Assembly: GCA_964569795.1 (NCBI GenBank)
Contig: CAZMVB010000005.1
Coordinates: 107,092 to 171,091 of the forward strand
DNA from: an uncultured Desulfarculales bacterium
Lineage (GTDB): Bacteria; Desulfobacterota; Desulfarculia; Desulfarculales; JAHJDS01
Direction of reading: 5' to 3'
Length of the DNA: 64,000 nt
Each line of letters opens with the position of its first letter. The first letter of the stretch is position 1. Both the position numbers and the translations under genes were made by a program. Below are positions 29,589-52,080 of this stretch, one piece after another. Below the pieces are notes generated by a model that was given only the letters and a program-made list of their open reading frames with translations, was not told where the DNA came from and searched no databases.

Positions 29589-30110
29589 TTACTGGTCAAT
29601 GAAGTGGGCCCGGCGGTTTTTCTGCCAGCAGGTCTCGTTGTGCTCGGTGCACAGGGGCCGGTCCTTGCCAAAGCTGACGGTCCTCATCCGGTCGGCGCTG
29701 ATGCCCAGGTCCGTCAGGTAGCGCTTGGCCGACTTGGCCCGGCGGTCGCCCAGGGCCAGGTTATAGGCTCGCGAGCCCCGTTCGTCACAGTTGCCTTGGA
29801 TGACCACCCGCACCCCTGGGTTGGATTTCATGTACGCGGCCTTGGCCTGGAGCACGAGCCGGGCGTCGGGTCGGATGAACGACCGGTCAAAGTCGAACAG
29901 GACGTCCTGGTTATAGAATTTTTGGCGGAGAAGCTGCCTTTGACGCATGGCTTCCGCCCGCCTGGCGGCCGCCTCCTGGGCCGCCCTGCGCCGGGCCAGC
30001 TCCTGCTGGCTGACGCCTGGGATCGCTTCCCTGGCGCAGCCAATGAATTGAACCATGAGCAGCACGGCCAGCAGGGCCAGTCCAGTCCCCATCAAGTAAC
30101 GCTTGAACAT
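29589..30110 (-). CDS. pal: Peptidoglycan-associated lipoprotein (Pal/OmpA family)
   Basis: Lipobox LMVQFIGC. OmpA-like C-terminal domain (VVIQGNCDERGSRAYNLALGDRRA). Confidence 0.85.
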   Translation of the reverse strand: MFKRYLMGTGLALLAVLLMVQFIGCAREAIPGVSQQELARRRAAQEAAARRAEAMRQRQLLRQKFYNQDVLFDFDRSFIRPDARLVLQAKAAYMKSNPGVRVVIQGNCDERGSRAYNLALGDRRAKSAKRYLTDLGISADRMRTVSFGKDRPLCTEHNETCWQKNRRAHFIDQ

Positions 30111-30461
30111 GTCTGCCTCCACGGTGGATGTCTGCGGTCGTTGCAGGGGCCGGCGCATATTCCCTCCGGCCCTGGGAGCGAGTACCTAGTCCTCCCTTCG
30201 CGTTATTGCAAATGTATCTCAGTAGCCGAGGAAGAACAATGAAGCCCAGACCTCATTGACAGACCAAACTGCCCCCATTTCAGGGAAGCCATCGCTTCAG
30301 CCGCCGGGGCCCCTATTTATATTTATTTATTTTAATTGGCACTCCAGGATCGTCAGGCGGCCGTCAATCGGGATCCTCAGCCAGCCTGGCCGGGTCAAGG
30401 CAGGGCTTTCGGTTTCGCCTCGATTCCGATATACTGGAACGGTCAAACCTGGCGAGCGGCC

Positions 30462-30584
30462 ATGAAATCCTATCGCAAAGAGCGATGGTTCGAGGTGCCG
30501 AGCCGGCGGGCCTTCATCCACATCACCCCGCAGGTCGAGGAGTGCCTCCGGGAGAGCGGGATCAAGGAGGGCCTGTGCCTGGTC
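30462..30584 (+). pseudogene. yjbQ: yjbQ (UPF0047) 5' part, 41 codons, cut by element insertion
   Basis: [41 protein letters not shown], then 7 element-derived codons and a stop. The continuation [10 protein letters not shown]... lies at 37774. Confidence 0.8.
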
Positions 30585-32244
30585 AAGACGAAGCATATGG
30601 AGTTTTGACCTCCACTCCGACTCCCTTTCCAACAATCTTACCGGCCTTCGCCGCCGCCTTGGTATCCCCGTCAAGAGGACGTTCCGCCGCAGCATAGACG
30701 TCCCCCGACCGAGCCTGTAAATGGCCCCATATGGTCCCCAGGCGGCCGTAGGCCTCGAACTCGTATCGGTGTGGGTTCCCTCCCAGGAACTTGATGTAAA
30801 CGCCGAACCGGCGGCCACCCGGGCCTGTCCCACCAAACACCAGGTTGACCAGGTCCTGTAGTTCGTCGTCGGGCATGTCATTGAAGGCGACCCCCGAGGA
30901 AATGTAACTCTCGACTATCCGCCGTACCAGTTGGGCGTCTTGGCTGTTCCGTTTGGCTTCGATTTCGGACTCCCGAGGCAGTGCCAATAACTGCTCGTCG
31001 ATGGCAGTCAACTCCTTCTTGTGGTTGGCCAACCGAGATTCAAGCTTCTTGAGGTTTCGCTGGGCCTGATCGTCGGTGACAATTCCCTTCCCGATGGCAG
31101 CCACGATTCGGTCCATTTCTGTTTGGACCTGTCGGACCTCTTTGAAGTGGAACGCCCTCTTGTCCAGGAGTTCCTTGACCACCTTTTCACTCGACTCGTG
31201 GCCCTCGAACACCGCGGCACGGAAGTCACCCTGGTTCGACAACATCACGGCCAGTTCATCCAAGACGGCCCGCTCCAAAACCTCGGCGTTGATACTGTAC
31301 TTGTAGCCGTCGCCGGAGTGTGGCCGGTAATACCTAAGGCCCCCTCGGTTTGCCGTCCCGGTCAAGGCCTTGCCCGTGTCGGTGTCGAAAATCTTGCGGC
31401 CCAATAAGTACCGGTGCTTGATATGCCCCCTGGCGTAGGTCTTCCGGGCCTTGGCCCTATCCTTGATGGCCTGGATTGTCTCCTCAGGCAGGAGTGGAGG
31501 CACAGGAGTCGGGACGGTCTCGTCGATCCTCGCCCACTCCAACCTGAACCTCTGATCCCAAGTGGCCCCGGCGGTCTTGGTTAACACCCGCCAAAGGTAC
31601 TGCCCGTTCATGCCGAACTTTCGTCCGAGTTCGTTGAATCCGGCGTTGGTCTCCAGGTACTCCCTGGCTATGGCCTCTATCTTGGCCTTGGCCTCGGGGT
31701 CAACCTGCCAGCCGTCCTCCTGGGACCAGGTCCGGCCATAGGGCCTCTTGCCACAACTGGGCCTCCCCTGCCTGGCACTTTCGATTTTGCCCAAAACCGA
31801 TTTGTAGGCCTGCTGGCCGGCAAAGAGCTCCCCGGCCTCGACACTCATCCCCAACACGAAAAAGGGCTCGGGATTGGTCAGCTCGTACTCCATCGGTCCG
31901 ACAAAAAACCTGACCCCCTTCATCCGAAGTGCCTTCAGGTTACCCTTGTTCTTCTCGTTGTCCCGGCTCCACCGACTAATGTCCGCCACGATCACGGCGT
32001 CAACCCGGCCATCCAGAGCATCGGTCATCAGTCGGTCAAGCTCGGCCCTTTCCCAGTTGGCGGTGGCGTGTTCCTGCCCGCCGTACCAGTCGACCACCTG
32101 CCCCCCGAGCCGGTCTATTGTCTGCTTGAGGTACCTCCGTTGGGTCTCCAGGCTTGTCCCCCGGTCAGCCTGTGCCTCGGTGCTGACCCGGATCAGGGGG
32201 GCGAACTTGATCGGCTGTTCTACCACGGCCTCGCCCTTTTTCAT
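30583..32244 (-). CDS. Large serine recombinase
   Basis: 553 aa. N-terminal resolvase domain with the catalytic Ser context LIRVSTEAQ, then a recombinase domain and a coiled-coil C-terminal part. Its stop codon sits at the attL core. Confidence 0.9.
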
Positions 32245-32272
32245 TGGACCACCCTCTCATCCTCCAGGGTAC

Positions 32273-32566
32273 TCACCGGTCGGCCCCTCCGCCCTTGACC
32301 AGTTCCAACTTCCCCCCCTTGTCCTGGATGGCCTCGGTCAAAGTGCTGTAGGAGGCAAAGTCGTTCAAGATCCCCAGCCACAAGGTCAACTCGACGGACT
32401 TGGGCATTGGGTAACGCCTCGTCAGCCAATTGCTGAGGGTGCCGTCGGACACCTCCAGGAATCGGGCTGCCTCGGACTGGGTTTTCCCAGCCGCCTGGAG
32501 TGCGGCCCTAAGCGGGTGAGCATTCGGGACCTCTTTTTGTGGCCTGCCGGGCCTTCCATCAGCCAT
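32273..32566 (-). CDS. Small helix-turn-helix DNA-binding protein
   Basis: 97 aa with SD GGAGGGGAG. HTH segment KTQSEAARFLEVSDGTLSNWL. Confidence 0.7.
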   Translation of the reverse strand: MADGRPGRPQKEVPNAHPLRAALQAAGKTQSEAARFLEVSDGTLSNWLTRRYPMPKSVELTLWLGILNDFASYSTLTEAIQDKGGKLELVKGGGADR

Positions 32567-32615
32567 GGTCTCCCCTCCACTGGGGGTTGAGGGTTTTTTT
32601 GAGGCCGGTCACCTG

Positions 32616-32644
32616 CCTCAATTACATTATTTGTGTGCAAAAAA
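32616..32644 (-). promoter_or_regulatory. Candidate sigma70 promoter for the HTH and recombinase genes
   Basis: TTGACA-N17-AATAAT on the minus strand in an AT-rich spacer about 50 nt upstream of ATG 32566. Confidence 0.45.
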
Positions 32645-32710
32645 ATCTTGTCAAGCATTTTTTGAAAAGATTTGTTATCTGACCCACTACAGGTAGTAGT
32701 TTCACCGGGC

Positions 32711-32775
32711 CATGGCCCCACAGGGGGACAGGTGAGATCTCCCCGCCATGGACGAATGCTTAAGCCCCCCACCCA
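32711..32775. repeat. Element intergenic motif, copy 1
   Basis: Shares GAGATC.CC.CGCCA.GG.C.AATGCTTAAGCCCCC with copy 2. Confidence 0.45.
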
Positions 32776-32807
32776 GTTTTTAGGCCAGGGGCAGGGGGGT
32801 CAAAAGT

Positions 32808-33743
32808 CTAAAAATTAGATTTTTCAGCTTCTGGCTGGTCATCGGCTAGTATGCCCGCAGGTAGGTCGAGGAGCTTCGTGGCCAATAGAAGCTTCACGTT
32901 CTCCACCGCCGCTACGACTGATTTGAGATCATCGGACAGATGTCTTAAAACCACTTTGCGCTCATCCTCCCCCAACGCAGGAGGACCCCCCCAGTTCCGG
33001 AACAGCAGGTCCGAAGTTTCTCCAACAGCTCGAAGCTGGTTTCTCAAGCGGACAATGAGGTCGTTTTTTCGTTTCTGTTGCCTGGCGACGATCCGGTCTC
33101 GGCCGCCGTTCTCCGCCCACACGCGGGTAATCTGCGGGCCATCGTCCTGCGGGTGGGTCGCCTGACCATGGTCCCACCACTGACCCTCTCTGACTCTTTT
33201 GTAGTCACCTGGGAACCTCTCCGGCTCAATGCCCACTATCTTCTGATAGCGCAACACGAACTCATCAACCTCGATTTCGCCCGACCGGTATGTCTTGTAG
33301 ACCTCCATGATTTGCTTCTGGTAGGCCCGGAATTCATCGGGATTGTCCTTGACCAGGGCCACGATCTCCTTGGGGAGCTTCCTGACGTCCATCAACACCG
33401 TCAGGGGGTATCCTTCGATCAAGTCCCTATGATACTCAAGGGTCTTGCAGATTGAAACGTAAAGCCAGGCGGTCTGGTAGGACAAATCGCCCCCCCAGTG
33501 GTCCTGGATGAAACGCTTATACTGGCCGTGCGGCAAGATGGCTTTCGCCTCCAGCAACGCCGTCCCGATGTCGTAGATGTTGTGTTTTATCGCGCTCAGC
33601 CGGAGGTCAACCTTTTTTGTAATTCTGGCCAATTTCCGACACTTAGAAGGAAAAAACTCACCGCCGTCACTATACTTGTGGAATTTTTTTGGATCATACC
33701 TTTCCTGCTCCCTGGCAGCGACATCTGGCAGAATCGGTTCCAT
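32808..33743 (-). CDS. Hypothetical protein, DUF3102-like N-terminal region
   Basis: 311 aa with SD AGGAGGTG. IGTALLEAKAILPHGQYKRFIQ resembles DUF3102 of phage and plasmid proteins (from memory). Confidence 0.6.
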   Translation of the reverse strand: MEPILPDVAAREQERYDPKKFHKYSDGGEFFPSKCRKLARITKKVDLRLSAIKHNIYDIGTALLEAKAILPHGQYKRFIQDHWGGDLSYQTAWLYVSICKTLEYHRDLIEGYPLTVLMDVRKLPKEIVALVKDNPDEFRAYQKQIMEVYKTYRSGEIEVDEFVLRYQKIVGIEPERFPGDYKRVREGQWWDHGQATHPQDDGPQITRVWAENGGRDRIVARQQKRKNDLIVRLRNQLRAVGETSDLLFRNWGGPPALGEDERKVVLRHLSDDLKSVVAAVENVKLLLATKLLDLPAGILADDQPEAEKSNF

Positions 33744-33814
33744 ATCGCACCTCCTGTTCGTCTGTATCTACATCTATTTTAGCATGTATTTACAAAAGTC
33801 CTGAAAGATTGTCG

Positions 33815-33875
33815 GGCCCTGGGCAGGGGCTTGATCGAGATCGCCTCGCCACGGGCAAATGCTTAAGCCCCCGGC
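33815..33875. repeat. Element intergenic motif, copy 2
   Basis: CCCTGGGCAGGGGCTTGATCGAGATCGCCTCGCCACGGGCAAATGCTTAAGCCCCC. The left half matches copy 3 and the right half matches copy 1. Confidence 0.45.
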
Positions 33876-33900
33876 CCGGATTTGGTGGTGGGCTTCCGGT

Positions 33901-34476
33901 TCACAGGCACACTTGGTCTTCCACGGCGGCGATCTCATCGGCCGTGATTCCAATGTACCGCCGGGTGATGGCAGGGGAGGAATGGCCAAACTTGGCTTGG
34001 ATCAGTTCAATGGGGATTCCTTTCTGCCGGGCCTGGTAGCCCCAGGTTTTCCGGAGGGTGTGTGTGCCACACCGTTCCTTGACCCCCACGGCCTCGCACC
34101 AGGACTTCATCAATGCCCAGGCCCGGACCTTGTCCAGGGGCTTGTCCGATCGGAGTGACTTGAACAGCCATTGGTCGGCCTCGGGATACCCCACCTTATC
34201 GAAGTACCAGGTCAAGGCCTCCTTGGCGCTGTCGTTGATGGTGATCTTGGCGTCCCGGTTGGTCTTGCCCTCCCTGATGGTGAAGTGGGGCCTGACTTCA
34301 TATTGGGCATCGAGGACGTCCCCGACCTTCAACCGGAGGAGGTCACCAACCCGCAGGGCAAAATTGATCCCCAGGACAAACAGCAGGTAGTCCCTCGGGT
34401 GGCCCTTGGCCTTGAGCATCGACCTGATGGCCATGATCTTTTTTTCGTCTCTGATGGGTTCGACTGCATTGGACAT
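33901..34476 (-). CDS. Tyrosine recombinase (phage-integrase family), minimal 191 aa form
   Basis: ALRVGDLLRLKVGDV (Arg I region), THTLRKTWG (H-x-x-R) and GHSSPAITRRYIG (catalytic Tyr region). Start set at ATG 34476. Confidence 0.8.
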   Translation of the reverse strand: MSNAVEPIRDEKKIMAIRSMLKAKGHPRDYLLFVLGINFALRVGDLLRLKVGDVLDAQYEVRPHFTIREGKTNRDAKITINDSAKEALTWYFDKVGYPEADQWLFKSLRSDKPLDKVRAWALMKSWCEAVGVKERCGTHTLRKTWGYQARQKGIPIELIQAKFGHSSPAITRRYIGITADEIAAVEDQVCL

Positions 34477-34606
34477 CACGGCATCTCCACTTAATGTTTG
34501 ATCCAATTATAGAGGGTTATATTATGCAAATCAAGCATTTTTTTGCCCCGGTGACCGGCCATTTTGAGAAATGGCTTTAACATCAACCTGTTAATGATCT
34601 GGGCTT

Positions 34607-34636
34607 AACACAATAAAATGACAGTTTTATTGTGTT
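34607..34636. repeat. Perfect 12-bp inverted repeat
   Basis: AACACAATAAAA-TGACAG-TTTTATTGTGTT, about 130 nt upstream of the tyrosine recombinase start. Confidence 0.7.
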
Positions 34637-34674
34637 GGTGGTTGGTGGGGGTGCCAGTTAGGTAAAACCACACA

Positions 34675-34725
34675 CCCTGGACAGGGGCTTGATCGAGAAC
34701 TCACCGCCACGGGCCTGTCATGCCG
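34675..34725. repeat. Element intergenic motif, copy 3
   Basis: CCCTGGACAGGGGCTTGATCGAGAACTCACCGCCACGGGCC matches copy 2 over about 40 nt. Confidence 0.45.
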
Positions 34726-34954
34726 AAAAAATGGGCCACCCCAGACCATGATGTCCAAGTGATCCAGGGTGGCCCCGCCGCTCAGCCTATCCCCTCTTAA
34801 CCTTGGTGGAGGAAACCAAGGCGGCCTCGGGCATGGAGGTAAATTTTGGGTTGGCCCCTGGCGCCTCGGGGGCCACACCAACGGACAACCAGACCAGGGG
34901 GAAGCCATCTCGGCCTCTGCTGAAGGGGCGGTCCCTGGCCCGGTTGACCTTGAT

Positions 34955-35695
34955 TCACACTTTGACCTTTTCAGAGAAGTTGCCTCTGGCCTTCCTCAAG
35001 GGGGGTGGTGGTGCCGCTTCCGGGTAGGCCTTCCACACGTCCTCCCTGGTGATCCCGAAGTGCTGACGGAGTTCTTCATCGGTCATGGCAATGGCAGTCC
35101 TGGGGATCCTGTCCCGCAAGGTCATCCTGGCCACGTTTTTTTGTGTGACCTGGTCCTTGGCCACCTTCACGGCCATGGGGGCCTTGCCAGAGCGGATGTC
35201 CGTCTGCGTGATGGTCAACAGTGACCAGTCCGGCAACTTGGGGTCATGGGCAGGAAGTTCGTCCTGGCCGGTCTCTATCTTTTTGGCCCTGGCCCACAGC
35301 TTGCCGATCTTGGCGTGGTCGTGGCACTTGACCTCTGCCGCCTTGATGAGGTCGATGTAGTGGGCCTGGGCGTCGGCCACCTGGGCCATGATGTCATTGA
35401 ACTCCTGCCGTAGCTGGGCTTGGGCTTCCTCTGCCTCGGCAAGGGCGGCCTGGACCAAAGGCGCGGGAGTGATGGCATCGAGGGCCGCTTGTTGATCGGC
35501 CAGCCACCCTTTCCTTTCCTCGATCAACTTTTCTGCCTTGGCCCGTCGTTTGGGATCGGACATCAGGTCAGCCGCTTTGATCTCCTTTTCCAAGACCTCG
35601 ATCTCGGACCTGGTGTCAGCCATCAGTCTTTCATAGGCCCGGCGCTCGGCTTTTTCGTTCGCCTGGAACTTCTCCAGGGCGTCAAATGATTTCAT
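34955..35695 (-). CDS. Hypothetical coiled-coil protein (246 aa)
   Basis: SD GGGAGG. The start overlaps the upstream stop (ATGA). The N-terminal half is rich in A/E/K/Q heptad-like sequence. Confidence 0.7.
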   Translation of the reverse strand: MKSFDALEKFQANEKAERRAYERLMADTRSEIEVLEKEIKAADLMSDPKRRAKAEKLIEERKGWLADQQAALDAITPAPLVQAALAEAEEAQAQLRQEFNDIMAQVADAQAHYIDLIKAAEVKCHDHAKIGKLWARAKKIETGQDELPAHDPKLPDWSLLTITQTDIRSGKAPMAVKVAKDQVTQKNVARMTLRDRIPRTAIAMTDEELRQHFGITREDVWKAYPEAAPPPPLRKARGNFSEKVKV

Positions 35696-35982
35696 TCCTG
35701 GCCTCCCTCATCCTTGTCGGGCTTGGGCCAGAGAGAAGGACTGTTGGGGTACATGGCAGCAATGCCACCACGGGCCTGGCCGGCGCGGACCTTGGCATCT
35801 TGAGCGGCCTTCTGCCGGGCTGAGGCTTGATACCAATCCGTCTCAGGTGGGTTGGTCTGCTGGCGGTCATGTTCTGCCAGGCCGTCCATGACACCCTTCT
35901 TGACGGATTCGGCCATGGGGTCAACTTCCTGATCGGCCACGGCCCGTTCTTCTGGTGTCTGATTCTGATTGTCGTCGGTCAT
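35692..35982 (-). CDS. Hypothetical protein (96 aa)
   Basis: SD AAGGAGAA. Translationally coupled to the downstream gene. Confidence 0.6.
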   Translation of the reverse strand: MTDDNQNQTPEERAVADQEVDPMAESVKKGVMDGLAEHDRQQTNPPETDWYQASARQKAAQDAKVRAGQARGGIAAMYPNSPSLWPKPDKDEGGQE

Positions 35983-36090
35983 CGTTTCTCCTTGCCGCTG
36001 TCCACACTAAGCGCCACTAAGGGCCTTCAAACTTAGTTTCTATTAGGGCCTTTTTTTGGTGGTTTCACTACTTGTCATTTGACGGTTTGC

Positions 36091-36378
36091 CTATTGGCAA
36101 TTCACTGCCTTGCTGAAAAGTGGATCGTGATATGCCCGCAGTCCATTGGGCAGGCGTCCCTTCTTGCCCACTGTCTTCTTGTAGATGTGCGCGTTGTGGC
36201 GCTCCACTAACCACTTGGCCACAGCCCGCTCAAGTTCATATTGCCCAGTGGCCAGGGTGGCCGTCTGCAGGTCGGCGGTGATCCTCACTCCTATGTGCTG
36301 AAACGGGGGTGGAGTGACCACTTCATGGCCCCGTTGCAGGTACCGGCCAGGTATGCCGTGGACAGTGAACCTAAACAT
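36091..36378 (-). CDS. Hypothetical protein (95 aa)
   Basis: SD AAGGAG 9 nt before the ATG. No family recognised. Confidence 0.55.
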   Translation of the reverse strand: MFRFTVHGIPGRYLQRGHEVVTPPPFQHIGVRITADLQTATLATGQYELERAVAKWLVERHNAHIYKKTVGKKGRLPNGLRAYHDPLFSKAVNCQ

Positions 36379-36757
36379 GATAAGGTACTCCTTCGGGGAT
36401 GCAGCCTTGGGTCAGGAAGGATTGGTTTGCTCGGCCAGGCCAGATCGAAGCTAACATCTCCTGCCCAACCTCTCCTGATTCTTCCTGGCCAAGGGTGGTC
36501 CCTGCGGGACCACCTTGTTGCTTAGTAAAATAAGTCTCTGGGGAGGGATCAAGCTGAGCAAAGCAAGGCTTCCTGACCCAAGGCTTATTCTTAATAAGCA
36601 ACAGGATCATAAAATGATCATATCTACCTGAATTATTTTTGGCAAATTTTGATTGTAAAATCAACGCAGTACATTTTAAAGCATGATCATTGACTATCTG
36701 TAACCTGTTGATTTTAGGAAAGTGGATCATAATTCTACGGCCGAATCAAAAATGATG

Positions 36758-37549
36758 TCATTTTTGACTCCGTCCCCTTCCTTGTTGCAGGTTGAAGCTG
36801 GCCAACTTCCGTCGCCACTCGGGCGTGTCACTAACAAAAGACACGCGATTGAATTTGCTCCCCTCATAGCCCACCCGAGTCCCGATGGCATAGATGTAGC
36901 CGGAGTGCGGGCCTGGCTTGACCACCTTTTCGAGGATGCCGAGATCGACGCAGGCCCTGATGTATTTCGTGACCATCCCTGGTGACAGCCCCAGCCTTTT
37001 TGCTGCATCCTGGTTGTCGATCTGGAGCAGCATAAGGTCCCGCCGGTCGGTCTGGCCTTTGCGCTCCCCCGATTTGACCGGGACCGGTCTTGATCGACGA
37101 TGCTCTGGCAGGGGGGCTGCCAATCTATCGGACTCCTCCTTGTTGGCAGTGTTGGCAGTGGTTTCCCAGAGGTAGTTGTAGAAGTCAGCCAGCCGAGTGC
37201 GCCTGAACACCTTACTGTCCCTGATCCCTGGGTCCGACGCCATCCATCTCCGCGGCCACCCCCCCTGTCGTGGAGCCAGCTCGGCCTGATATTCGTTCTT
37301 GATGTCCGCGATCCATTCCTCCACGAATGAGACGTAGGGCTTAACCACGTCCCGTCTGGCCTTGAGTACCTCCTTGTCCATGGCCTTGCTGTCAGGGGGG
37401 AGCAAATGCGGGTGCTCGCCCGCATCGACCTCGGCGCGAAGTTGGTCTTCAGCCCCCTGGACTTCTTCGCCGATTCTCCACTTGATCGCACGAAGTTGCT
37501 TCTGGAGTATTTGGTATCGAGGGTGTAGGTCATCCGCTTTTTTCGTCAT
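36758..37549 (-). CDS. Hypothetical protein with a C-terminal winged-helix-like segment (263 aa)
   Basis: SD ACGGAGG. DAAKRLGLSPGMVTKYIRACVDLGILEKV resembles an HTH. It is the first gene of the element on the minus strand. Confidence 0.65.
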   Translation of the reverse strand: MTKKADDLHPRYQILQKQLRAIKWRIGEEVQGAEDQLRAEVDAGEHPHLLPPDSKAMDKEVLKARRDVVKPYVSFVEEWIADIKNEYQAELAPRQGGWPRRWMASDPGIRDSKVFRRTRLADFYNYLWETTANTANKEESDRLAAPLPEHRRSRPVPVKSGERKGQTDRRDLMLLQIDNQDAAKRLGLSPGMVTKYIRACVDLGILEKVVKPGPHSGYIYAIGTRVGYEGSKFNRVSFVSDTPEWRRKLASFNLQQGRGRSQK

Positions 37550-37688
37550 CGCCTTGGCCTCCGTTCTGGCCGTGAATCCTGGGCTCGGGGCTGGGTGAAC
37601 GGCCCCAGCCCCTCAACCGCCTGGCCAGACGGTGCCCAGGAATTTGAAGGTTCAGGTTTGAATTTAGCATCTGGAAGCCTCCCGCCCC

Positions 37689-37717
37689 TTGTGTTTCCAC
37701 GGGCGCCTGGCTACAAT
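37689..37717 (+). promoter_or_regulatory. Candidate outward-facing sigma70 promoter at the right end of the element
   Basis: TTGTGT-N17-TACAAT, 33 nt upstream of ATG 37750, which opens the chimeric ORF running into the yjbQ 3' part. An AAGGGA SD-like sequence lies in between. Confidence 0.35.
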
Positions 37718-37773
37718 TTCACCACGCAGTTTGAAGGGAATGATTTTACATGCAGAACTTTGTGTGTTTGGTA

Positions 37774-38070
37774 AACGCCATGCACATTACGGCATCGGTA
37801 TTCATCAACGACGACGAGTCGGGCCTGCATCACGACTACGAGAAGTGGCTCGAAGGCCTGGCCCCTCACGCCCCGGTGAGCCAGTACCAGCACAACCGGA
37901 CCGGCGAGGACAACGCCGACGCCCATCTCAAGCGGCAAGTGATGGGCCGGGAGGTGGTGGTGGCCGTGACCGACGGCCGCCTGGACTTCGGCACCTGGGA
38001 GCAAATCTTCTACGGCGAGTTCGACGGCCGCCGCCGCAAGCGGGTCCTGGTCAAGATCATCGGGGAGTAA
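37774..38070 (+). pseudogene. yjbQ: yjbQ (UPF0047) 3' part, 98 codons
   Basis: [17 protein letters not shown]...[53 protein letters not shown] aligns with the C-terminal two thirds of E. coli YjbQ (from memory). It is preceded by 8 element-derived codons starting at ATG 37750. Confidence 0.8.
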
Positions 38071-38091
38071 CGATCCTTTGGGGGGGACGCA

Positions 38092-38949
38092 ATGGAGTTA
38101 GTTAAGCCCGAACGCATTTGGGTAAAAGACCACCCTTCCCTTAACGAAAAGTGGGTCCAGTCTATAATCGAGGACGACCCTTCAATCCTTGGCTTGGGTG
38201 AGCTTGATTTCAGGGACAAAGAACGCCGTCATCCTCGGGCTGGCCGGCTGGACTTGTTATTGGAAGACTCTGAGGCCAATCGCCGATATGAAGTTGAAAT
38301 TCAACTTGGGGCAACGAATGAAAGTCACATAATTCGAACTATAGAGTATTGGGACATCGAACGTAAAAGGTATCCACAATATGACCACTGCGCAGTCATT
38401 GTAGCCGAAGACATTACTAGCCGGTTCTTGAACGTAATTGGTCTGTTTAACGGATTCATTCCAATCGTTGCCATTCAATTTCAAGCTATGATGTTCAATG
38501 ACAAAATTGCCCTGATTTTTACAACAGTCTTAGACGAAATGACTTTGGGTGAAGATGAAGGAAACGGACCTCTGCCGAGAGTCGACAGGGGTTATTGGGA
38601 AACAAAACGGGGCACCAAAGAAACCGTTGCGCTAGCTGACGGAATTCTTGATTTAATCCATTCATTTTCTCCCGAATACGAACTAAATTATAACAAATAC
38701 TACATAGGACTTGTAAAGCAGGGGCAACCAAACAACTTTGTAATTGTCAAGCCAAAGAAAAAATATGCAGTAGTCGAAATTAAACTGGCCAAGACAGATG
38801 AAGTTAATGGCCAGTTGGAAGACAGTGATCTGGACGTGATCGATCATCATAAAAGTGGGAGATGGAGAATCAGGCTGAAAAAGAAAGATATTCTCGCAAA
38901 CAAGGAGTTGTTAACTGAATTGTTAAAAAAAGCCTCCAATGAATTTTGA
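38092..38949 (+). CDS. NucS/DUF91-like PD-(D/E)xK fold protein (hypothetical), AT-rich
   Basis: 285 aa. GRLDLLLEDSEANRRYEVEIQLG resembles a D...E.(K/Q) nuclease core. The IIRTIEYWDIERKRYPQYDH block is known to me from widespread uncharacterised homologs. Confidence 0.65.
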   Translation: MELVKPERIWVKDHPSLNEKWVQSIIEDDPSILGLGELDFRDKERRHPRAGRLDLLLEDSEANRRYEVEIQLGATNESHIIRTIEYWDIERKRYPQYDHCAVIVAEDITSRFLNVIGLFNGFIPIVAIQFQAMMFNDKIALIFTTVLDEMTLGEDEGNGPLPRVDRGYWETKRGTKETVALADGILDLIHSFSPEYELNYNKYYIGLVKQGQPNNFVIVKPKKKYAVVEIKLAKTDEVNGQLEDSDLDVIDHHKSGRWRIRLKKKDILANKELLTELLKKASNEF

Positions 38950-39131
38950 TAATAGAAACTGGACCGGGGCTAATGGGCGTTGTATTGTCGAGAGCGTAAA
39001 ATCAAGTTATATCGTCATAAGGCCAGACATTAACTTTCCATAAAAAGTTATGATTCCACAAAAGCCCCACCATCATCCATCACGGAAGGCGAAAAGTCAA
39101 TAGGGGGTATCGAGGCGGTTGGGATTTCTCC

Positions 39132-40421
39132 TCATGGTTTAGCCCTGGATAACAGTTCATGTATGTGCCTACTAGATATCGCAAAGTTTAAATTCTGACC
39201 TGTCTTAATTGACAATGTTACTATACCAATAACCTTACCCCCATAATTCAATAATGGGCTCCCGCTTGACCCTTGCGATATGGGGGCCGTGAACTGAATG
39301 AGATATCCATATTTTTTAACCTTTCTAACTCCGGAAACAATTCCATTTGATACTGTATGATATAATAATCCTAAAGGGCTTCCTATAACCACAATAGGTT
39401 CTCCCACTTGAGGTAGTCTATTTGATAATCTTAGATGATGGAATATGTAGCCTTTATGCCCAAGATGCAGGATTGCTATATCATGTGGTATAGAAAATGC
39501 GACTACCCTGGATATTTTAAATAATTTTCCATTATAGTCACGGATAAATAGCGAAGTCGCTTTCGCTATAACATGATAGTTTGTCACTATTAATTGCTTT
39601 CCTTTAATAAAAAATCCGCTGCCTGCCTTTCTGCGTCTTGATTTAAAGACCGCGTACACTGTGACTATGGACCGTTGCACCTTTTTGATCAAATTTGGGA
39701 GTGACCTTGTGGTATCGCTTGACCCCACATCACGGCGATTATAACTAGACCTACTTTTAAGATATAGCCTGGGTTTGTACCGTTTCCACCTCTGGCCCGT
39801 GGTCACTGCAGTCACGAATTTGGCAAAATGTATGCCAGTAACTTTTTTCAAGTCGGCGAAAAAATGAGCCTCCACCACCACAATTCGTTTCCTGAGATAA
39901 CTACGCACTTTTTCAGGCATACAATTAATCAACATTTCTGCAAATCTAATGTACCGCAGACTCCTCCAAAATAAACCTGTAGCTTGTCTATATTTCTTCT
40001 CTTTAAAATTTCTCGCTCCATATTTAAACATTACCTGTGCGAGTCTAACCATGTCTCCAATAAAACTATCATAAACTATTGTAAACCTTTTTACCTGCTT
40101 TGGCCCCGCAATATTTTCTGCCTTTATTAAAAGGGCTAAGCTGCTCTTCAGTCGCCGATAGCTTGCTTTGGGATGCCCATTCCAATAAAGTATTTGGCCT
40201 TTCCTGAATTCTTGTCGAGCCTTTTTAACCAACTTGATAGCGGAATCGGGTCTAGAGGTGGATGCAAAAGAAATGGCAGGCATTGAAAATGTAAATAGTA
40301 ATATTACTAACAAGTTTGCAAGAAACCATATGTATGGGGACTCCCGAAACTGCAAATTTTCAACTGATTTCTTCTGACGTTCAGGTGCTTGAATCGGAAC
40401 CAAATAGCGGAAGAACTTCAC
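39132..40421 (-). CDS. Trypsin-like serine protease (S1C-like) with an N-terminal membrane anchor and helical region, AT-rich
   Basis: Catalytic triad contexts TNYHVI, DIAILHL and GSSGSPLL. Hydrophobic helix IWFLANLLVILLFTF. Confidence 0.8.
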   Translation of the reverse strand: MKFFRYLVPIQAPERQKKSVENLQFRESPYIWFLANLLVILLFTFSMPAISFASTSRPDSAIKLVKKARQEFRKGQILYWNGHPKASYRRLKSSLALLIKAENIAGPKQVKRFTIVYDSFIGDMVRLAQVMFKYGARNFKEKKYRQATGLFWRSLRYIRFAEMLINCMPEKVRSYLRKRIVVVEAHFFADLKKVTGIHFAKFVTAVTTGQRWKRYKPRLYLKSRSSYNRRDVGSSDTTRSLPNLIKKVQRSIVTVYAVFKSRRRKAGSGFFIKGKQLIVTNYHVIAKATSLFIRDYNGKLFKISRVVAFSIPHDIAILHLGHKGYIFHHLRLSNRLPQVGEPIVVIGSPLGLLYHTVSNGIVSGVRKVKKYGYLIQFTAPISQGSSGSPLLNYGGKVIGIVTLSIKTGQNLNFAISSRHIHELLSRAKP

Positions 40422-40595
40422 AAGGCCCCCCTGTATCGATCTTTATAGTATAACTCAAACTGGCCGAATTAGGAAGCCTGGCCGTGCGTGGTTTACAAGC
40501 GGCTGATCAATAATAACTTTTCCGTAGAAGTTAAGAATTTATATTGGATATTCACGAACTTGCGATTGAAAAGCTGGACTAGCCCCTCACCCCTT

Positions 40596-49424: not shown

Positions 49425-50189
49425 TCACCGGGCCTCGGGCAGAAATTGAAAAAGCACGAAAATCTCCTGATTGCCCTTGGGACCCTTGATCACGGCGTCC
49501 GCCCTGCCCTCCTCGACCAGGCCGAGGGACCGGGCCAAGGCGGCCACCTCGTCCACGGCCGCCCGGCGAACGGCCTCATCCCGGACCACCCCGCCCTTGC
49601 TCACTTTTTCCGGCCCGGCCTCGAACTGGGGCTTGATCAGGGCCAGCACCCGGGCCCCGGGTTTGAGCAGTTCCAGCAGCGGGGGCAGTATTTTTTTTAA
49701 AGAGATGAAGGACACGTCCACCGTGGCCAGATCGAATCTATCCGTAAAATCGGCCGGCGCGGCGTGGCGGAAGTTGTATCGTTCGAGGGCGACCACCCGG
49801 GTGTCTTGGCGTAGCTTCCAGTCGAGCTGGCCCCGGCCCACGTCCACGGCCCAGACCCGGGCCGCGCCGCGCTGGAGCAGGCAGTCGGTGAACCCGCCGG
49901 TCGAGGCCCCCACGTCCAGGCAGACCAGGCCGACTACATTCAGCCCGAAATGATCCAGGGCCCCGGCCAGCTTGACGCCGCCGCGACTTACGTAGGGATG
50001 ATCGGGTTCCTTGAGTTCGATCCGGGCATCGACCGGGACCAATGAGCCCGGCTTGGGACGGTCAATCCCCTCGACCAGGACCTGCCCCGCCAGGATCAAG
50101 GCCTGGGCCCGGGTCCGGGACGGAGCCAGGCCCCTTGTCTCCAGCAGCTTATCGAGCCGCTCTTTGGCTGAAGGCGGGGGTGTGGACAC
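49425..50189 (-). CDS. tlyA: TlyA family rRNA 2'-O-methyltransferase
   Basis: S4-like N-terminus ERLDKLLETRGLAPSRTRAQALI and SAM motif LDVGASTGGFTD. Confidence 0.9.
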   Translation of the reverse strand: MSTPPPSAKERLDKLLETRGLAPSRTRAQALILAGQVLVEGIDRPKPGSLVPVDARIELKEPDHPYVSRGGVKLAGALDHFGLNVVGLVCLDVGASTGGFTDCLLQRGAARVWAVDVGRGQLDWKLRQDTRVVALERYNFRHAAPADFTDRFDLATVDVSFISLKKILPPLLELLKPGARVLALIKPQFEAGPEKVSKGGVVRDEAVRRAAVDEVAALARSLGLVEEGRADAVIKGPKGNQEIFVLFQFLPEAR

Positions 50190-52080
50190 CGGACACGATT
50201 TCCAGGGTGGCCTTGACTATCCCGGCTTGATCCAGGCCAAAGGCGGCCCGCATCTCGGGCTGGGTGCCGTGGGGCACGAACACGTCCGGGATGCCCAGCC
50301 GCTTGAGGGAGACGTGGCCCAGACCCCGGTCGGTCAACATTGCGGCCACGGACGAGCCGAACCCGCCGTGGATGACGTTCTCCTCGACGGTGACGATCCG
50401 TCCTGTCCGCTCGGCCAAGTCCGTGATGAGATCGGCGTCCAGGGGCTTGATGAACCGGGCGTTGATCACGGCCGCGTCGATGCCCTGCCGGGCCAGCTGG
50501 GCGGCGGCCTCGGCGGCCGGCTCGACCATGGCCCCCACGGCGATCAGGGCCGCCTCACCTCCCTCCCGCAACACCTCTCCCCGGCCGACGGGCAGTTCCC
50601 GGAATTCCTGGCCGAGTTGGACGCCCAGGCCGTATCCCCGGGGATACCGGAAGGCAAAGGGGTGGTCCTGGTTGAGGCCGGTGTACAGGAGGTGGCGCAG
50701 CTCTTCCTCGTCCTTGGGGGCGCAGACGATCATCCGGGGCAGGGCCCGCAAATAACTCAGGTCGAACAGTCCCTGGTGGGTCGAGCCGTCCTGGCCGACG
50801 ATGCCCCCCCGATCCAGGGCGAAGACCACCGGCAGGTCCTGATGGCAGACGTCGTGGAGGATCTGATCAAAGGCCCGCTGCAGGAAGGTGGAATAGATCG
50901 CCACCACCGGCCGGAAACCCTCGACGGCCAGCCCGGCGGCCACGACCACGGCGTGCTGCTCGGCGATGCCCACGTCCATGAAGCGGTCGGGGAATTTTTC
51001 GGCAAACTCGATCAGCCCGGTCCCCTCGGGCATGGCCGCGGTAATGGCGATGATCCGCTGGTTGTCCTCGGCCAGACGGCACATGGCGTGGCCGAAGACG
51101 TGGGTGTAGCTGGGGGCGTGGGGCCCTTTCTTGTAGGGCGAGCCCGAGTTGACGTCGAACTTGCCCACGCCGTGGTAGTGGGCCGGGTCGGCCTCGGCCG
51201 GGGCAAAGCCCTTGCCTTTCTGGGTCACCACGTGGATCAGGATCGGTCCGGACAGGTCCCGGACGTTCTCGAAGGTGGTGATCAGGCGGTCCAGGCGGTG
51301 GCCGTCCACCGGTCCGAGGTAGTTGAACTTGAAGGCCTCGAAGAGCATGCCCGGGGTGACAAAACTCTTCCAGGACTCCTCGCTCTTGCGGGCCAGGTTC
51401 ACCACGGACTCGCCGATGCCGGGGATGGATTTCAGGAGCTTCTCGATCTCCTTGCGCAGCCGCTGGTAGAACCGGCTCGAGAGCTGACGGGACAGGATCG
51501 AGGACAAGGCGCCCACGTTTCTGGAAATGGACATCTTGTTGTCGTTCAGGACGACGATCAGGTCCTCGTCCAGGTCGCCGGCCTGATTCAGCCCCTCGAA
51601 GGCCAGCCCGCCGGTCAGGGAGCCGTCTCCGATGACGGCGATGACCCGGCCGGGTTCTTTTTTGAGGCGCTTGGCCACGGCCATGCCCAGGGCGGCCGAG
51701 ATCGAGGTCGAGGAGTGCCCGGTGTCATAGGTGTCGTACACGCTCTCGCTGCGCCGGGGAAATCCGGACAGCCCGCCCTGCTGCCGCAGGGAATCGAACC
51801 GGTCATACCGGCCGGTGATCAGCTTGTGGGCATAGGTCTGATGGCCCACGTCCCAGACGATCCGGTCCTGGGGGGCGTCAAAGACCTTGTGCAGGGCCAG
51901 GGTCAACTCGACCACACCCAGGGACGGGGCCAGGTGGCCGCCGGTCCGGGACACGGTGTCAATGATCTTGGCCCGGATCTGTTCGGCCAGGTCCTCGAGA
52001 TCGGCCAGGTCCAGGCCCTTGAGATCGGCCGGCGACTTGATGTCGGCCAGGTTGACTTTCGGTTTGTCGATTTCGTCCAT
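50149..52080 (-). CDS. dxs: 1-deoxy-D-xylulose-5-phosphate synthase
   Basis: 643 aa with GGHLAPSLGVVELT, the GDG thiamine-diphosphate motif (IGDGSLTGG) and GIAEQHAV. Confidence 0.95.
   Translation of the reverse strand: MDEIDKPKVNLADIKSPADLKGLDLADLEDLAEQIRAKIIDTVSRTGGHLAPSLGVVELTLALHKVFDAPQDRIVWDVGHQTYAHKLITGRYDRFDSLRQQGGLSGFPRRSESVYDTYDTGHSSTSISAALGMAVAKRLKKEPGRVIAVIGDGSLTGGLAFEGLNQAGDLDEDLIVVLNDNKMSISRNVGALSSILSRQLSSRFYQRLRKEIEKLLKSIPGIGESVVNLARKSEESWKSFVTPGMLFEAFKFNYLGPVDGHRLDRLITTFENVRDLSGPILIHVVTQKGKGFAPAEADPAHYHGVGKFDVNSGSPYKKGPHAPSYTHVFGHAMCRLAEDNQRIIAITAAMPEGTGLIEFAEKFPDRFMDVGIAEQHAVVVAAGLAVEGFRPVVAIYSTFLQRAFDQILHDVCHQDLPVVFALDRGGIVGQDGSTHQGLFDLSYLRALPRMIVCAPKDEEELRHLLYTGLNQDHPFAFRYPRGYGLGVQLGQEFRELPVGRGEVLREGGEAALIAVGAMVEPAAEAAAQLARQGIDAAVINARFIKPLDADLITDLAERTGRIVTVEENVIHGGFGSSVAAMLTDRGLGHVSLKRLGIPDVFVPHGTQPEMRAAFGLDQAGIVKATLEIVSGVHTPAFSQRAAR

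Follow-up and report, generated by a model that had tools for sequence, protein, structure and literature searches.

Large serine recombinase (LSR) elements lying inside genes are a classic arrangement, known from SPbeta (SprA, spsM), skin (SpoIVCA, sigK) and A118 in comK. As shown by Durrant et al. (2022; PMC10083194), distant LSRs frequently converge on the same conserved gene, for example those for Mg chelatase and prolyl isomerase. Here, we analyzed a 64-kb stretch of DNA from an uncultured Desulfarculales bacterium (contig CAZMVB010000005.1, positions 107,092 to 171,091; referred to as the window), in which a yjbQ (UPF0047) gene is interrupted by 7.2 kb of foreign DNA. This DNA is very probably a 7,189-bp integrative element that was put into the chromosomal yjbQ gene by its own LSR, through recombination of attP with attB at the AA of the Asn42 codon.

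An earlier reading of the DNA made without database searches (the sequence-only reading) had proposed that a YjbQ-like 5′ piece runs into foreign sequence, that the remainder lies in the open reading frame (ORF) at 37750-38070, and that the two halves rejoin in frame. All of this was evident in the translations. The ORF at 30462-30608 encodes YjbQ sequence (MKSY...EGLCLV) and then leaves YjbQ (KTKHMEF, with a stop at 30608), and the ORF at 37750-38070 starts with eight foreign codons (MQNFVCLV) followed by NAMHITAS...VLVKIIGE. The gene is split by the element into 41 and 98 codons, as follows.

30462..30584, plus strand: yjbQ 5′ fragment, codons 1-41; 91% identity to the joined YjbQ over aa 1-46
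37774..38070, plus strand: yjbQ 3′ fragment, codons 42-139 plus stop; 99% identity over aa 38-139

Joining of 30584 to 37774 in silico generated an in-frame protein of 139 aa. Scoring of this protein against family profiles gave a full-length match above the cutoffs, with 132.6 bits for Pfam UPF0047 (PF01894; cutoff of 27; profile positions 2-117 of 117) and 117.6 bits for TIGR00149 YjbQ (cutoff of 67.75). Three intact 139-aa proteins (P0005, P0006 and P0007) exhibited 93-94% identity to the joined protein at a coverage of 99-100%. No second yjbQ copy was detected within the window in a search with the joined YjbQ.

The closest intact homolog, P0005, is encoded on two small metagenome contigs, L152 and L153. 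In these contigs, an OmpA-family gene precedes yjbQ on the opposite strand, an arrangement identical to that of the window, and the DNA aligned to window positions 29591-30308, 30456-30586 and then 37769-38069 with 84-91% identity. The two alignment ends at the junction overlapped by 7 bases, TGGTSAA. The relatives with an empty attB that the sequence-only reading had suggested looking for were, therefore, found, as these contigs carry an uninterrupted yjbQ in the same neighborhood of a relative at roughly genus distance, indicating that the 7.2 kb of DNA is an insertion.

The two junctions were assigned to the following sites.

30555..30616, plus strand: attL; host arm ...CTGTGCCTGGTC, core AA (30585-30586), element arm GACGAAGCATATGGAG...
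37744..37805, plus strand: attR; element arm ...CTTTGTGTGTTTGGTA, core AA (37774-37775), host arm CGCCATGCACAT...

The predicted attB is CTGTGCCTGGTC-AA-CGCCATGCACAT and the predicted attP is TTTGTGTGTTTGGTA-AA-GACGAAGCATATGGAG with flanks; the synthetic junction sequences were GGAGGGCCTGTGCCTGGTCAACGCCATGCACATTACGGC for attB and GAACTTTGTGTGTTTGGTAAAGACGAAGCATATGGAGTT for attP. A TGGT core had been proposed originally, and TGGT is present at both junctions: attL and attR of the window have TGGT in common and, one base further on, AA. Core mapping was performed with a set of two-ended elements consisting of the window element and 13 others. AA was the sole dinucleotide at the junction common to attL and attR in L122 and L104, and the attL and attR sites of L087 and L127 had nothing in common to the left of AA. 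The attP sites rebuilt from these 14 elements were imperfect palindromes with a mean dyad symmetry of 10.6 of 16 at AA, as compared to 3.0-5.4 of 16 at every other center tested; symmetry at AA was 14/16 for L104 and 9/16 for the window with 16-nt arms. The attB sites were more weakly symmetric (mean of 6.6/16); that of the window scored 8/14, with TGTGCnTGG on both arms. As AA was the only shared dinucleotide in some loci and the attP dyad was centered on it, the crossover core is predicted to be the AA of the Asn42 codon, at 30585-86 and 37774-75, and the inserted element would be 30587-37775, a length of 7,189 bp. TGGT was ruled out as the crossover, since attL and attR of L087, L122 and L104 do not have TGGT in common; the crossover is probably 1 to 2 bases away from this motif, and AA fits the data for the whole family. 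The joined protein is identical with either placement. On this sequence evidence, the att sites have the attributes of LSR sites, namely, short length, an imperfect dyad and an asymmetric 2-bp core that sets orientation.

The recombinase gene adjoins the left junction, as had been noted in the sequence-only reading.

30583..32244, minus strand: large serine recombinase, 553 aa; Pfam Resolvase, 49.5 bits; phrog_95; predicted fold

Its TGA stop (30583-85) overlaps the junction and is composed of the T of the core and the GA of the host. The protein has an N-terminal resolvase-type catalytic domain (PF00239, 49.5 bits), residues 10-447 matched phrog_95 (phage integrase family; E of 4e-38), and its profile matched the catalytic domain of TP901-1 integrase (3bvp; E of 6.5e-13). 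The R19-V20-S21 and SRWSRDN motifs were invariant among 43 relatives. An AlphaFold2 model (pLDDT of 81.6) exhibited the LSR order of domains, with long paired helices at 352-443. Foldseek matched this model across about 560 columns of the full-length integrases 9dxd, 9tep, 9iu2 and 4kis; the best match was a serine integrase-DNA complex (9dxd_A; E of 4.7e-18), followed by PhiC31, Bxb1 and A118. Sequence and predicted fold both indicated that the product of 30583-32244 is an LSR, apparently a deviant one in its cysteine-poor "zinc ribbon." In an excised circle, the recombinase ORF would lengthen from the 553 aa of the integrated state to 589 aa, and in the loci of type B, described below, the ORF extends some tens of bases into the host fragment. 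The predicted attP overlaps the 3′-terminal codons of this gene.

A set of 147 loci encoding recombinase relatives (28-56% identity within the matched region) was collected, of which 80 were metagenome contigs and 67 were genomes of GTDB species, and these loci were searched for yjbQ with the joined YjbQ sequence. A yjbQ fragment was present at the 3′ end of the recombinase gene in 84 of the 147 loci; this corresponds to 84/124 when only loci with ≥150 bp of sequence downstream are counted and to 40/67 for the genomes only. In all 84 loci, yjbQ was broken at the same codon. Two layouts were observed. Type A (46 loci; the layout of the window) has the 5′ fragment, from aa 1 to about aa 43, on the opposite strand, whereas in type B (38 loci), the strand of the recombinase gene also carries the yjbQ fragment, which is the 3′ one and starts at about aa 38. 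Both element ends were present in 13 loci, with element sizes of 6.3-10.9 kb. The other 40 loci with enough downstream sequence had the conserved element arm followed by non-yjbQ sequence, presumably due to insertions at other targets. In L018, L058 and L114, the insertion was at the corresponding position in another YjbQ subfamily (VYTPHTTAAVTINE), which is 36-37% identical to the window protein; the site preference, therefore, reaches beyond the highly conserved YjbQ subfamily. An invertase-type switch ("full yjbQ, recombinase, inverted 5′ fragment") was considered and rejected, as the two-ended loci have complementary host fragments 6-11 kb apart.

According to the record titles, the hosts of the family belong to about eight phyla, with many Desulfobacterota, Planctomycetota, Bacteroidales, Spirochaetes, Verrucomicrobia (Nibricoccus), Acidobacteriota, Lentisphaerae and one metagenome-assembled genome (MAG) of Bacillota; this taxonomy was taken from MAG labels, which can be wrong. 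The yjbQ-inserted hosts include the complete genome of Desulfosarcina widdelii PP31. At a threshold of 1e-10, no recombinase relatives were detected in INPHARED phages (50,697 phage records) or PLSDB plasmids, and IMG/VR contained only three. The integrase family is widespread and uses one spot in yjbQ across bacteria of many phyla.

As the source of the window is a metagenome assembly, the split gene could have been generated by a chimeric join within the contig. There is hardly any chance of such an artifact: the architecture recurs in 84 unrelated loci, including the D. widdelii PP31 complete genome, and an independent Logan assembly of run SRR14802574 reproduced attL base for base. The 7,100-bp Logan contig, which extends 52 bp beyond attL and stops about 140 bp short of attR, was also considered as an excised circle or a branch point; this was rejected, as the contig has the integrated attL and is, hence, silent on excision.

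The core sequence differed between the two layouts. When read along the recombinase gene, every junction had the same conserved arm, roughly AAnnAnATnTGCTTnGTA. The dinucleotide following this arm was TT in 43/43 type A junctions and AA in 31/37 type B junctions; the six type B exceptions include the junctions of L018, L058 and L114 with the divergent YjbQ subfamily. For Bxb1, the core dinucleotide alone sets the orientation of integration. The same was reported for the A118 integrase (PMC3556126). Since orientation is set by the core alone in LSRs, the two layouts are explained by a flipped attP core acting on a roughly symmetric attB. Types A and B were distributed in blocks on an approximate neighbor-joining tree of 116 recombinases, with at least 11 switches on this rough tree.

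A full-length yjbQ gene was also found in 21 of the 84 yjbQ-inserted loci and in 18 of the 49 with more than 3 kb of upstream sequence. The element-borne gene is usually the immediate upstream neighbor of the recombinase gene, but in some cases it lies at the far element end; in L030, the genes for a tyrosine recombinase, YjbQ and the LSR are separated by 12 and 9 bp. Two examples are the following.

L030, 3578-3991: full-length element-borne yjbQ
L102, 9584-9997: full-length element-borne yjbQ

The window element and its nearer relatives (e.g., L087) do not have a full-length yjbQ. Differences between element-borne and host yjbQ were core proximal, at -4 to -2 and +4. Position +4 was G in 16/21 element-borne genes versus C in 20/33 host fragments, and the left arm of the element-borne genes was mostly CTyTGy or CTCAT rather than CTGGTC. 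These differences may provide protection from self-targeting or may just reflect shared descent.

The 139-aa YjbQ type was 88-94% identical to proteins labeled Anaerolineae, Nitrospira, Chthoniobacteraceae and Proteobacteria. Dxs, encoded at window positions 50149-52080, was 83-89% identical to proteins of some MAGs and 63-66% identical to those of Desulfobaccales and Desulfarculus, which belong to the same phylum (Desulfobacterota). This contrast is due either to unusual conservation or to horizontal transfer. Many family members carry a complete yjbQ in a tight operon with the recombinases (tyrosine recombinase, yjbQ, LSR; gaps of 9-12 bp). A doubtful suggestion is that the elements also spread yjbQ, with a landing pad being carried between phyla, replacing the host gene and seeding a new attB. 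If true, a carried landing pad would explain the odd cross-phylum conservation of the 139-aa YjbQ type.

Several other observations were made on yjbQ fragments and sites. The window 3′ fragment (106 aa) falls in a 90%-identity cluster of 524 members; 10 of the 15 listed members are 96-106 aa long, and these start at Met44 or slightly upstream, around the att site. Interruption of yjbQ would, accordingly, be frequent in metagenomes, with the interrupted genes being annotated as short YjbQ proteins. Three loci contain an additional 5′ fragment of yjbQ that terminates at the att core or no more than three codons away from it.

L003, 10001-10615: yjbQ 5′-fragment scar
L004, 4154-4702: yjbQ 5′-fragment scar
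L002, 3640-5420: yjbQ 5′-fragment scar

Each scar precedes an intact yjbQ, at a distance of 18 bp, 75 bp or 1.2 kb, and there is no recombinase gene in the vicinity. The L003 scar retains a degenerate element arm, and the annotation of the scar loci gives fusion proteins of 182 aa and 204 aa (P0002-P0004). The 3′ end of yjbQ (window 38045-38056; GTCCTGGTC-AA-GATC, residues VLVK) repeats the left half of attB and the core. In P0001, a metagenomic protein of 232 aa (L158, 118-816), codons 42-133 are duplicated in tandem with the join GTGCTGGTC-AA-CGCCATGCAC, which looks as if attB had recombined with the pseudo-site at the yjbQ 3′ end.

The window element contains eight ORFs, all uninterrupted and all on the minus strand. 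Apart from the LSR gene, its features are as follows.

32273..32566, minus strand: 97-aa cI/Cro-like helix-turn-helix (HTH) protein; HTH_31/HTH_3 below the Pfam curated cutoffs; phage repressor PHROGs
32626..32654, minus strand: sigma-70-like promoter match, TTGACA-17-AATAAT, 11/12; a consensus match only, upstream of the HTH and recombinase genes
32808..33743, minus strand: 311-aa protein with a weak DUF3102-like N terminus; homologs in 2 other loci only
33901..34506, minus strand: 201-aa tyrosine recombinase, catalytic domain only; Pfam Phage_integrase, 81 bits; phrog_216, E of 1e-49
34955..35695, minus strand: 246-aa protein; no family match (Pfam, PHROGs)
35692..35982, minus strand: 96-aa protein; no family match (Pfam, PHROGs)
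36091..36378, minus strand: 95-aa protein; no family match (Pfam, PHROGs)
36379..36757, no strand: lower-GC intergenic region with an inverted repeat, ATGATC repeats and promoter-like matches
36758..37549, minus strand: 263-aa protein with a C-terminal winged helix; HTH_24; 58 relatives; model pLDDT of 90

A gap of 28 bp separates the 97-aa HTH gene from the recombinase gene downstream of it. Just downstream of the winged-helix gene are a 33-nt inverted repeat (36403-36435/36553-36585; 88% complementary, 117 nt apart) and an AT-rich stretch (36590-36760) with four ATGATC-containing repeats and several promoter-like matches; the 36379-36757 region is possibly an origin or operator. For the 263-aa model, the best matches in the PDB (4pql, 5kbj and 4pt7) had E values of 0.15-0.4 and were not significant, with a resemblance to RepA_N-type initiators, and the protein had no match in the plasmid collection (PLSDB). 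No transfer or capsid genes were recognizable in the element with Pfam and PHROGs, and no Rfam family was detected in the window or element at the gathering threshold or at an E of ≤1. As a working reading, the window element would be a small plasmid-like integrative element.

Cargo varied among the relatives. The tyrosine recombinase is the sole widely shared cargo gene, with homologs in 28 related loci, mostly just upstream of the serine recombinase; L087 and others have a small serine recombinase in its place. A large terminase (phrog_2; E of 1.5e-19) and a head maturation protease (DUF2213) were found in L103 (3586-5834), L117, L127 and L099/L102, indicating that the recombination module serves different kinds of element; the terminase-bearing members of 9-11 kb would be small phage-like or satellite-like elements.

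The presence of the 201-aa tyrosine recombinase within the element, with the usual active-site residues (R, K, HxxR, H, Y) on reading of its sequence, and of its homologs alongside the serine recombinase in those 28 loci raises the question of whether this enzyme, and not the serine recombinase, performed the insertion. This is highly improbable. The att site adjoins and overlaps the serine recombinase gene in every locus, and elements without the tyrosine recombinase, such as L087, occupy the same site. Tyrosine integrases need an identical overlap of 6-8 bp. Identity between attL and attR goes down to 2 bp, which fits serine but not tyrosine integrases.

Two side observations concern sequences within and next to the element. 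Three direct copies of a 45-70-nt motif (GGGGCTTAAGCATTYG...GATCTCGATCAAGCCCCTGYCCAGGG, hairpin capable) are present at 32734-32780, 33813-33883 and 34671-34714; they are intergenic and flank the genes for the 311-aa protein and the tyrosine recombinase, giving a cassette-like look. No copy of the 24-nt core of this motif was found elsewhere in the window outside the element. The copies may act as terminators or as sites used by the small tyrosine recombinase. A low-GC island (about 40% versus about 62% in the surroundings) at 38090-40480 starts 20 bp past the yjbQ stop and contains two genes.

38092-38949, plus strand: DUF5655 protein
39132-40421, minus strand: trypsin-like protease, phrog_11383

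In the syntenic relative L152, this position is occupied by another gene and, hence, the region downstream of yjbQ is also variable.

In the proposed mechanism, the LSR would recombine an attP of about 50 bp with attB inside the chromosomal yjbQ gene. Exchange at the AA of the Asn42 codon would generate attL, in which the 5′ part of the host gene is joined to the element, and attR, in which the element is joined to the 3′ part of the host gene, and yjbQ would be inactive as long as the element is integrated. This copy would still be active, and its excision would need a directionality factor. The plasmid-like parts would comprise a candidate winged-helix initiator beside AT-rich repeats and a cI-like regulator, with the small tyrosine recombinase as a possible multimer resolvase.

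A number of points weigh against this interpretation. No direct sign of movement of this copy was seen, nor was an attP or attB junction from the same population. An exact look-up of the restored 139-aa protein in a collection of 15 billion proteins found no copy. No directionality factor was recognized among the small ORFs of the element. The 553-aa recombinase had no Pfam match to the Recombinase domain (PF07508) or the zinc ribbon (PF13408); PF13408 first appears in relative P0189, at 42% identity, and is present in most relatives at <40%. A count from the sequence gave only one cysteine, so that the "zinc ribbon" is without the usual mode of zinc binding. The closest relative of the recombinase is 48% identical, and the protein itself was seen once, plus the Logan contig. 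The window att sites are only moderately symmetric with 14-nt arms (attB, 8/14; attP, 7/14), and the plasmid-like reading leans on nonsignificant fold matches.

Retention of intact parts argues for a functional element. The 553-aa recombinase ORF is intact with the family-invariant residues present, the conserved arms and core are kept at both att sites, the eight element ORFs are uninterrupted, and the yjbQ halves are 91-99% identical to the intact consensus with no frameshift, which indicates that the insertion is recent or reversible. It is, on these grounds, unlikely that the element is a fixed, immobile remnant and yjbQ simply a pseudogene in this lineage, a view consistent with the single occurrence, the small cargo without known mobility functions, the shortage of cysteines in the zinc ribbon of the recombinase and the old-insertion scars in other genomes (L002, L003 and L004).

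The LSR together with a directionality factor would rebuild yjbQ exactly, and a reversible interruption is, hence, possible in principle. The sequence-only reading had gone further and likened the layout to the regulated interruptions of skin, SPbeta and heterocysts, in which a domesticated element (as for sigK and spsM) is excised in response to a host trigger and the gene is rebuilt. This parallel was not supported and is quite improbable for yjbQ. The insertion is intragenic, precise excision restores the ORF in frame in silico, and the element has neither recognizable transfer or capsid genes nor the replacement yjbQ carried by about a quarter of its relatives. However, members of the family in about eight phyla occupy this one site, inserted either way round and carrying differing cargo, a spread that points to active horizontal transfer and not to host domestication. 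Furthermore, many relatives compensate with their own yjbQ, the element carries its own cI-like regulator, and no excised form was seen in the exact protein look-up. The host is an uncultured bacterium that is Desulfobacterota-like in its Dxs, and its lineage is not known to undergo terminal differentiation. The cross-phylum spread, both orientations, variable cargo, frequent replacement yjbQ and own regulator point instead to an ordinary mobile element that uses a conserved gene as its landing site, with the interruption being a cost.

The insertion of large DNA at defined sites relies mainly on large serine integrases. The family described here recognizes a roughly 26-bp site in a gene that is near-identical across Desulfobacterota, Planctomycetota, Bacteroidota, Spirochaetota, Verrucomicrobiota, Acidobacteriota and others, and these ready-made landing sites could serve many organisms that are now without genetic tools. 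It also represents a natural series in which the orientation of insertion has been reversed repeatedly by flips of the 2-bp core (AA or TT). For genome annotation, the family explains the numerous 96-106-aa "YjbQ" fragments called in metagenomes.

The window element resembles SPbeta and skin of Bacillus subtilis in that an LSR element lies in a coding gene and its precise excision would rebuild the ORF in frame. It differs from them in having no link to sporulation or a developmental program and no recognized directionality factor; moreover, the yjbQ family spans phyla, is found in either orientation and frequently comes with a copy of the gene that it targets. A further likeness is to the integration-dependent immunity of mycobacteriophages, in which attP is in the 3′ end of an ORF and integration alters the C terminus, here 553 versus 589 aa. 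In the mycobacteriophages, this ORF encodes the repressor, and integration is catalyzed by a tyrosine recombinase. A regulatory role for the 553/589-aa switch of the recombinase is speculation. With Listeria A118/U153, which integrate into comK, the element shares LSR-mediated insertion into a conserved coding region and an asymmetric 2-bp core that sets orientation (PMC3556126). Those elements are, however, full tailed prophages, as opposed to 7.2 kb of DNA without virion genes, and their target and att sequences are unrelated.

The LSR clusters of Durrant et al. (PMC10083194) are similar in that distantly related LSRs use a single site within a conserved gene. In the sections of its text and supplements available to us, yjbQ/UPF0047 does not occur as a target, and these sections do not describe paired orientations with flipped cores or carriage of the whole target gene. 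In the accessible portion of a Vibrio cholerae survey (bioRxiv 10.1101/2024.07.25.605194), yjbQ is listed as an insertion site for elements carrying defense systems, the sole mention of yjbQ as an insertion site found in the literature as far as it was available. The YjbQ of the E. coli/Vibrio type belongs to a different subfamily from the 139-aa type, and this hot spot and the window system are probably unrelated. LSR elements in genes are, thus, already known, and the window element adds one of that sort; what may be new are the details at the level of the family, namely, that one site is used in different phyla, that the core occurs naturally in flipped form and that the target gene is itself carried by elements.

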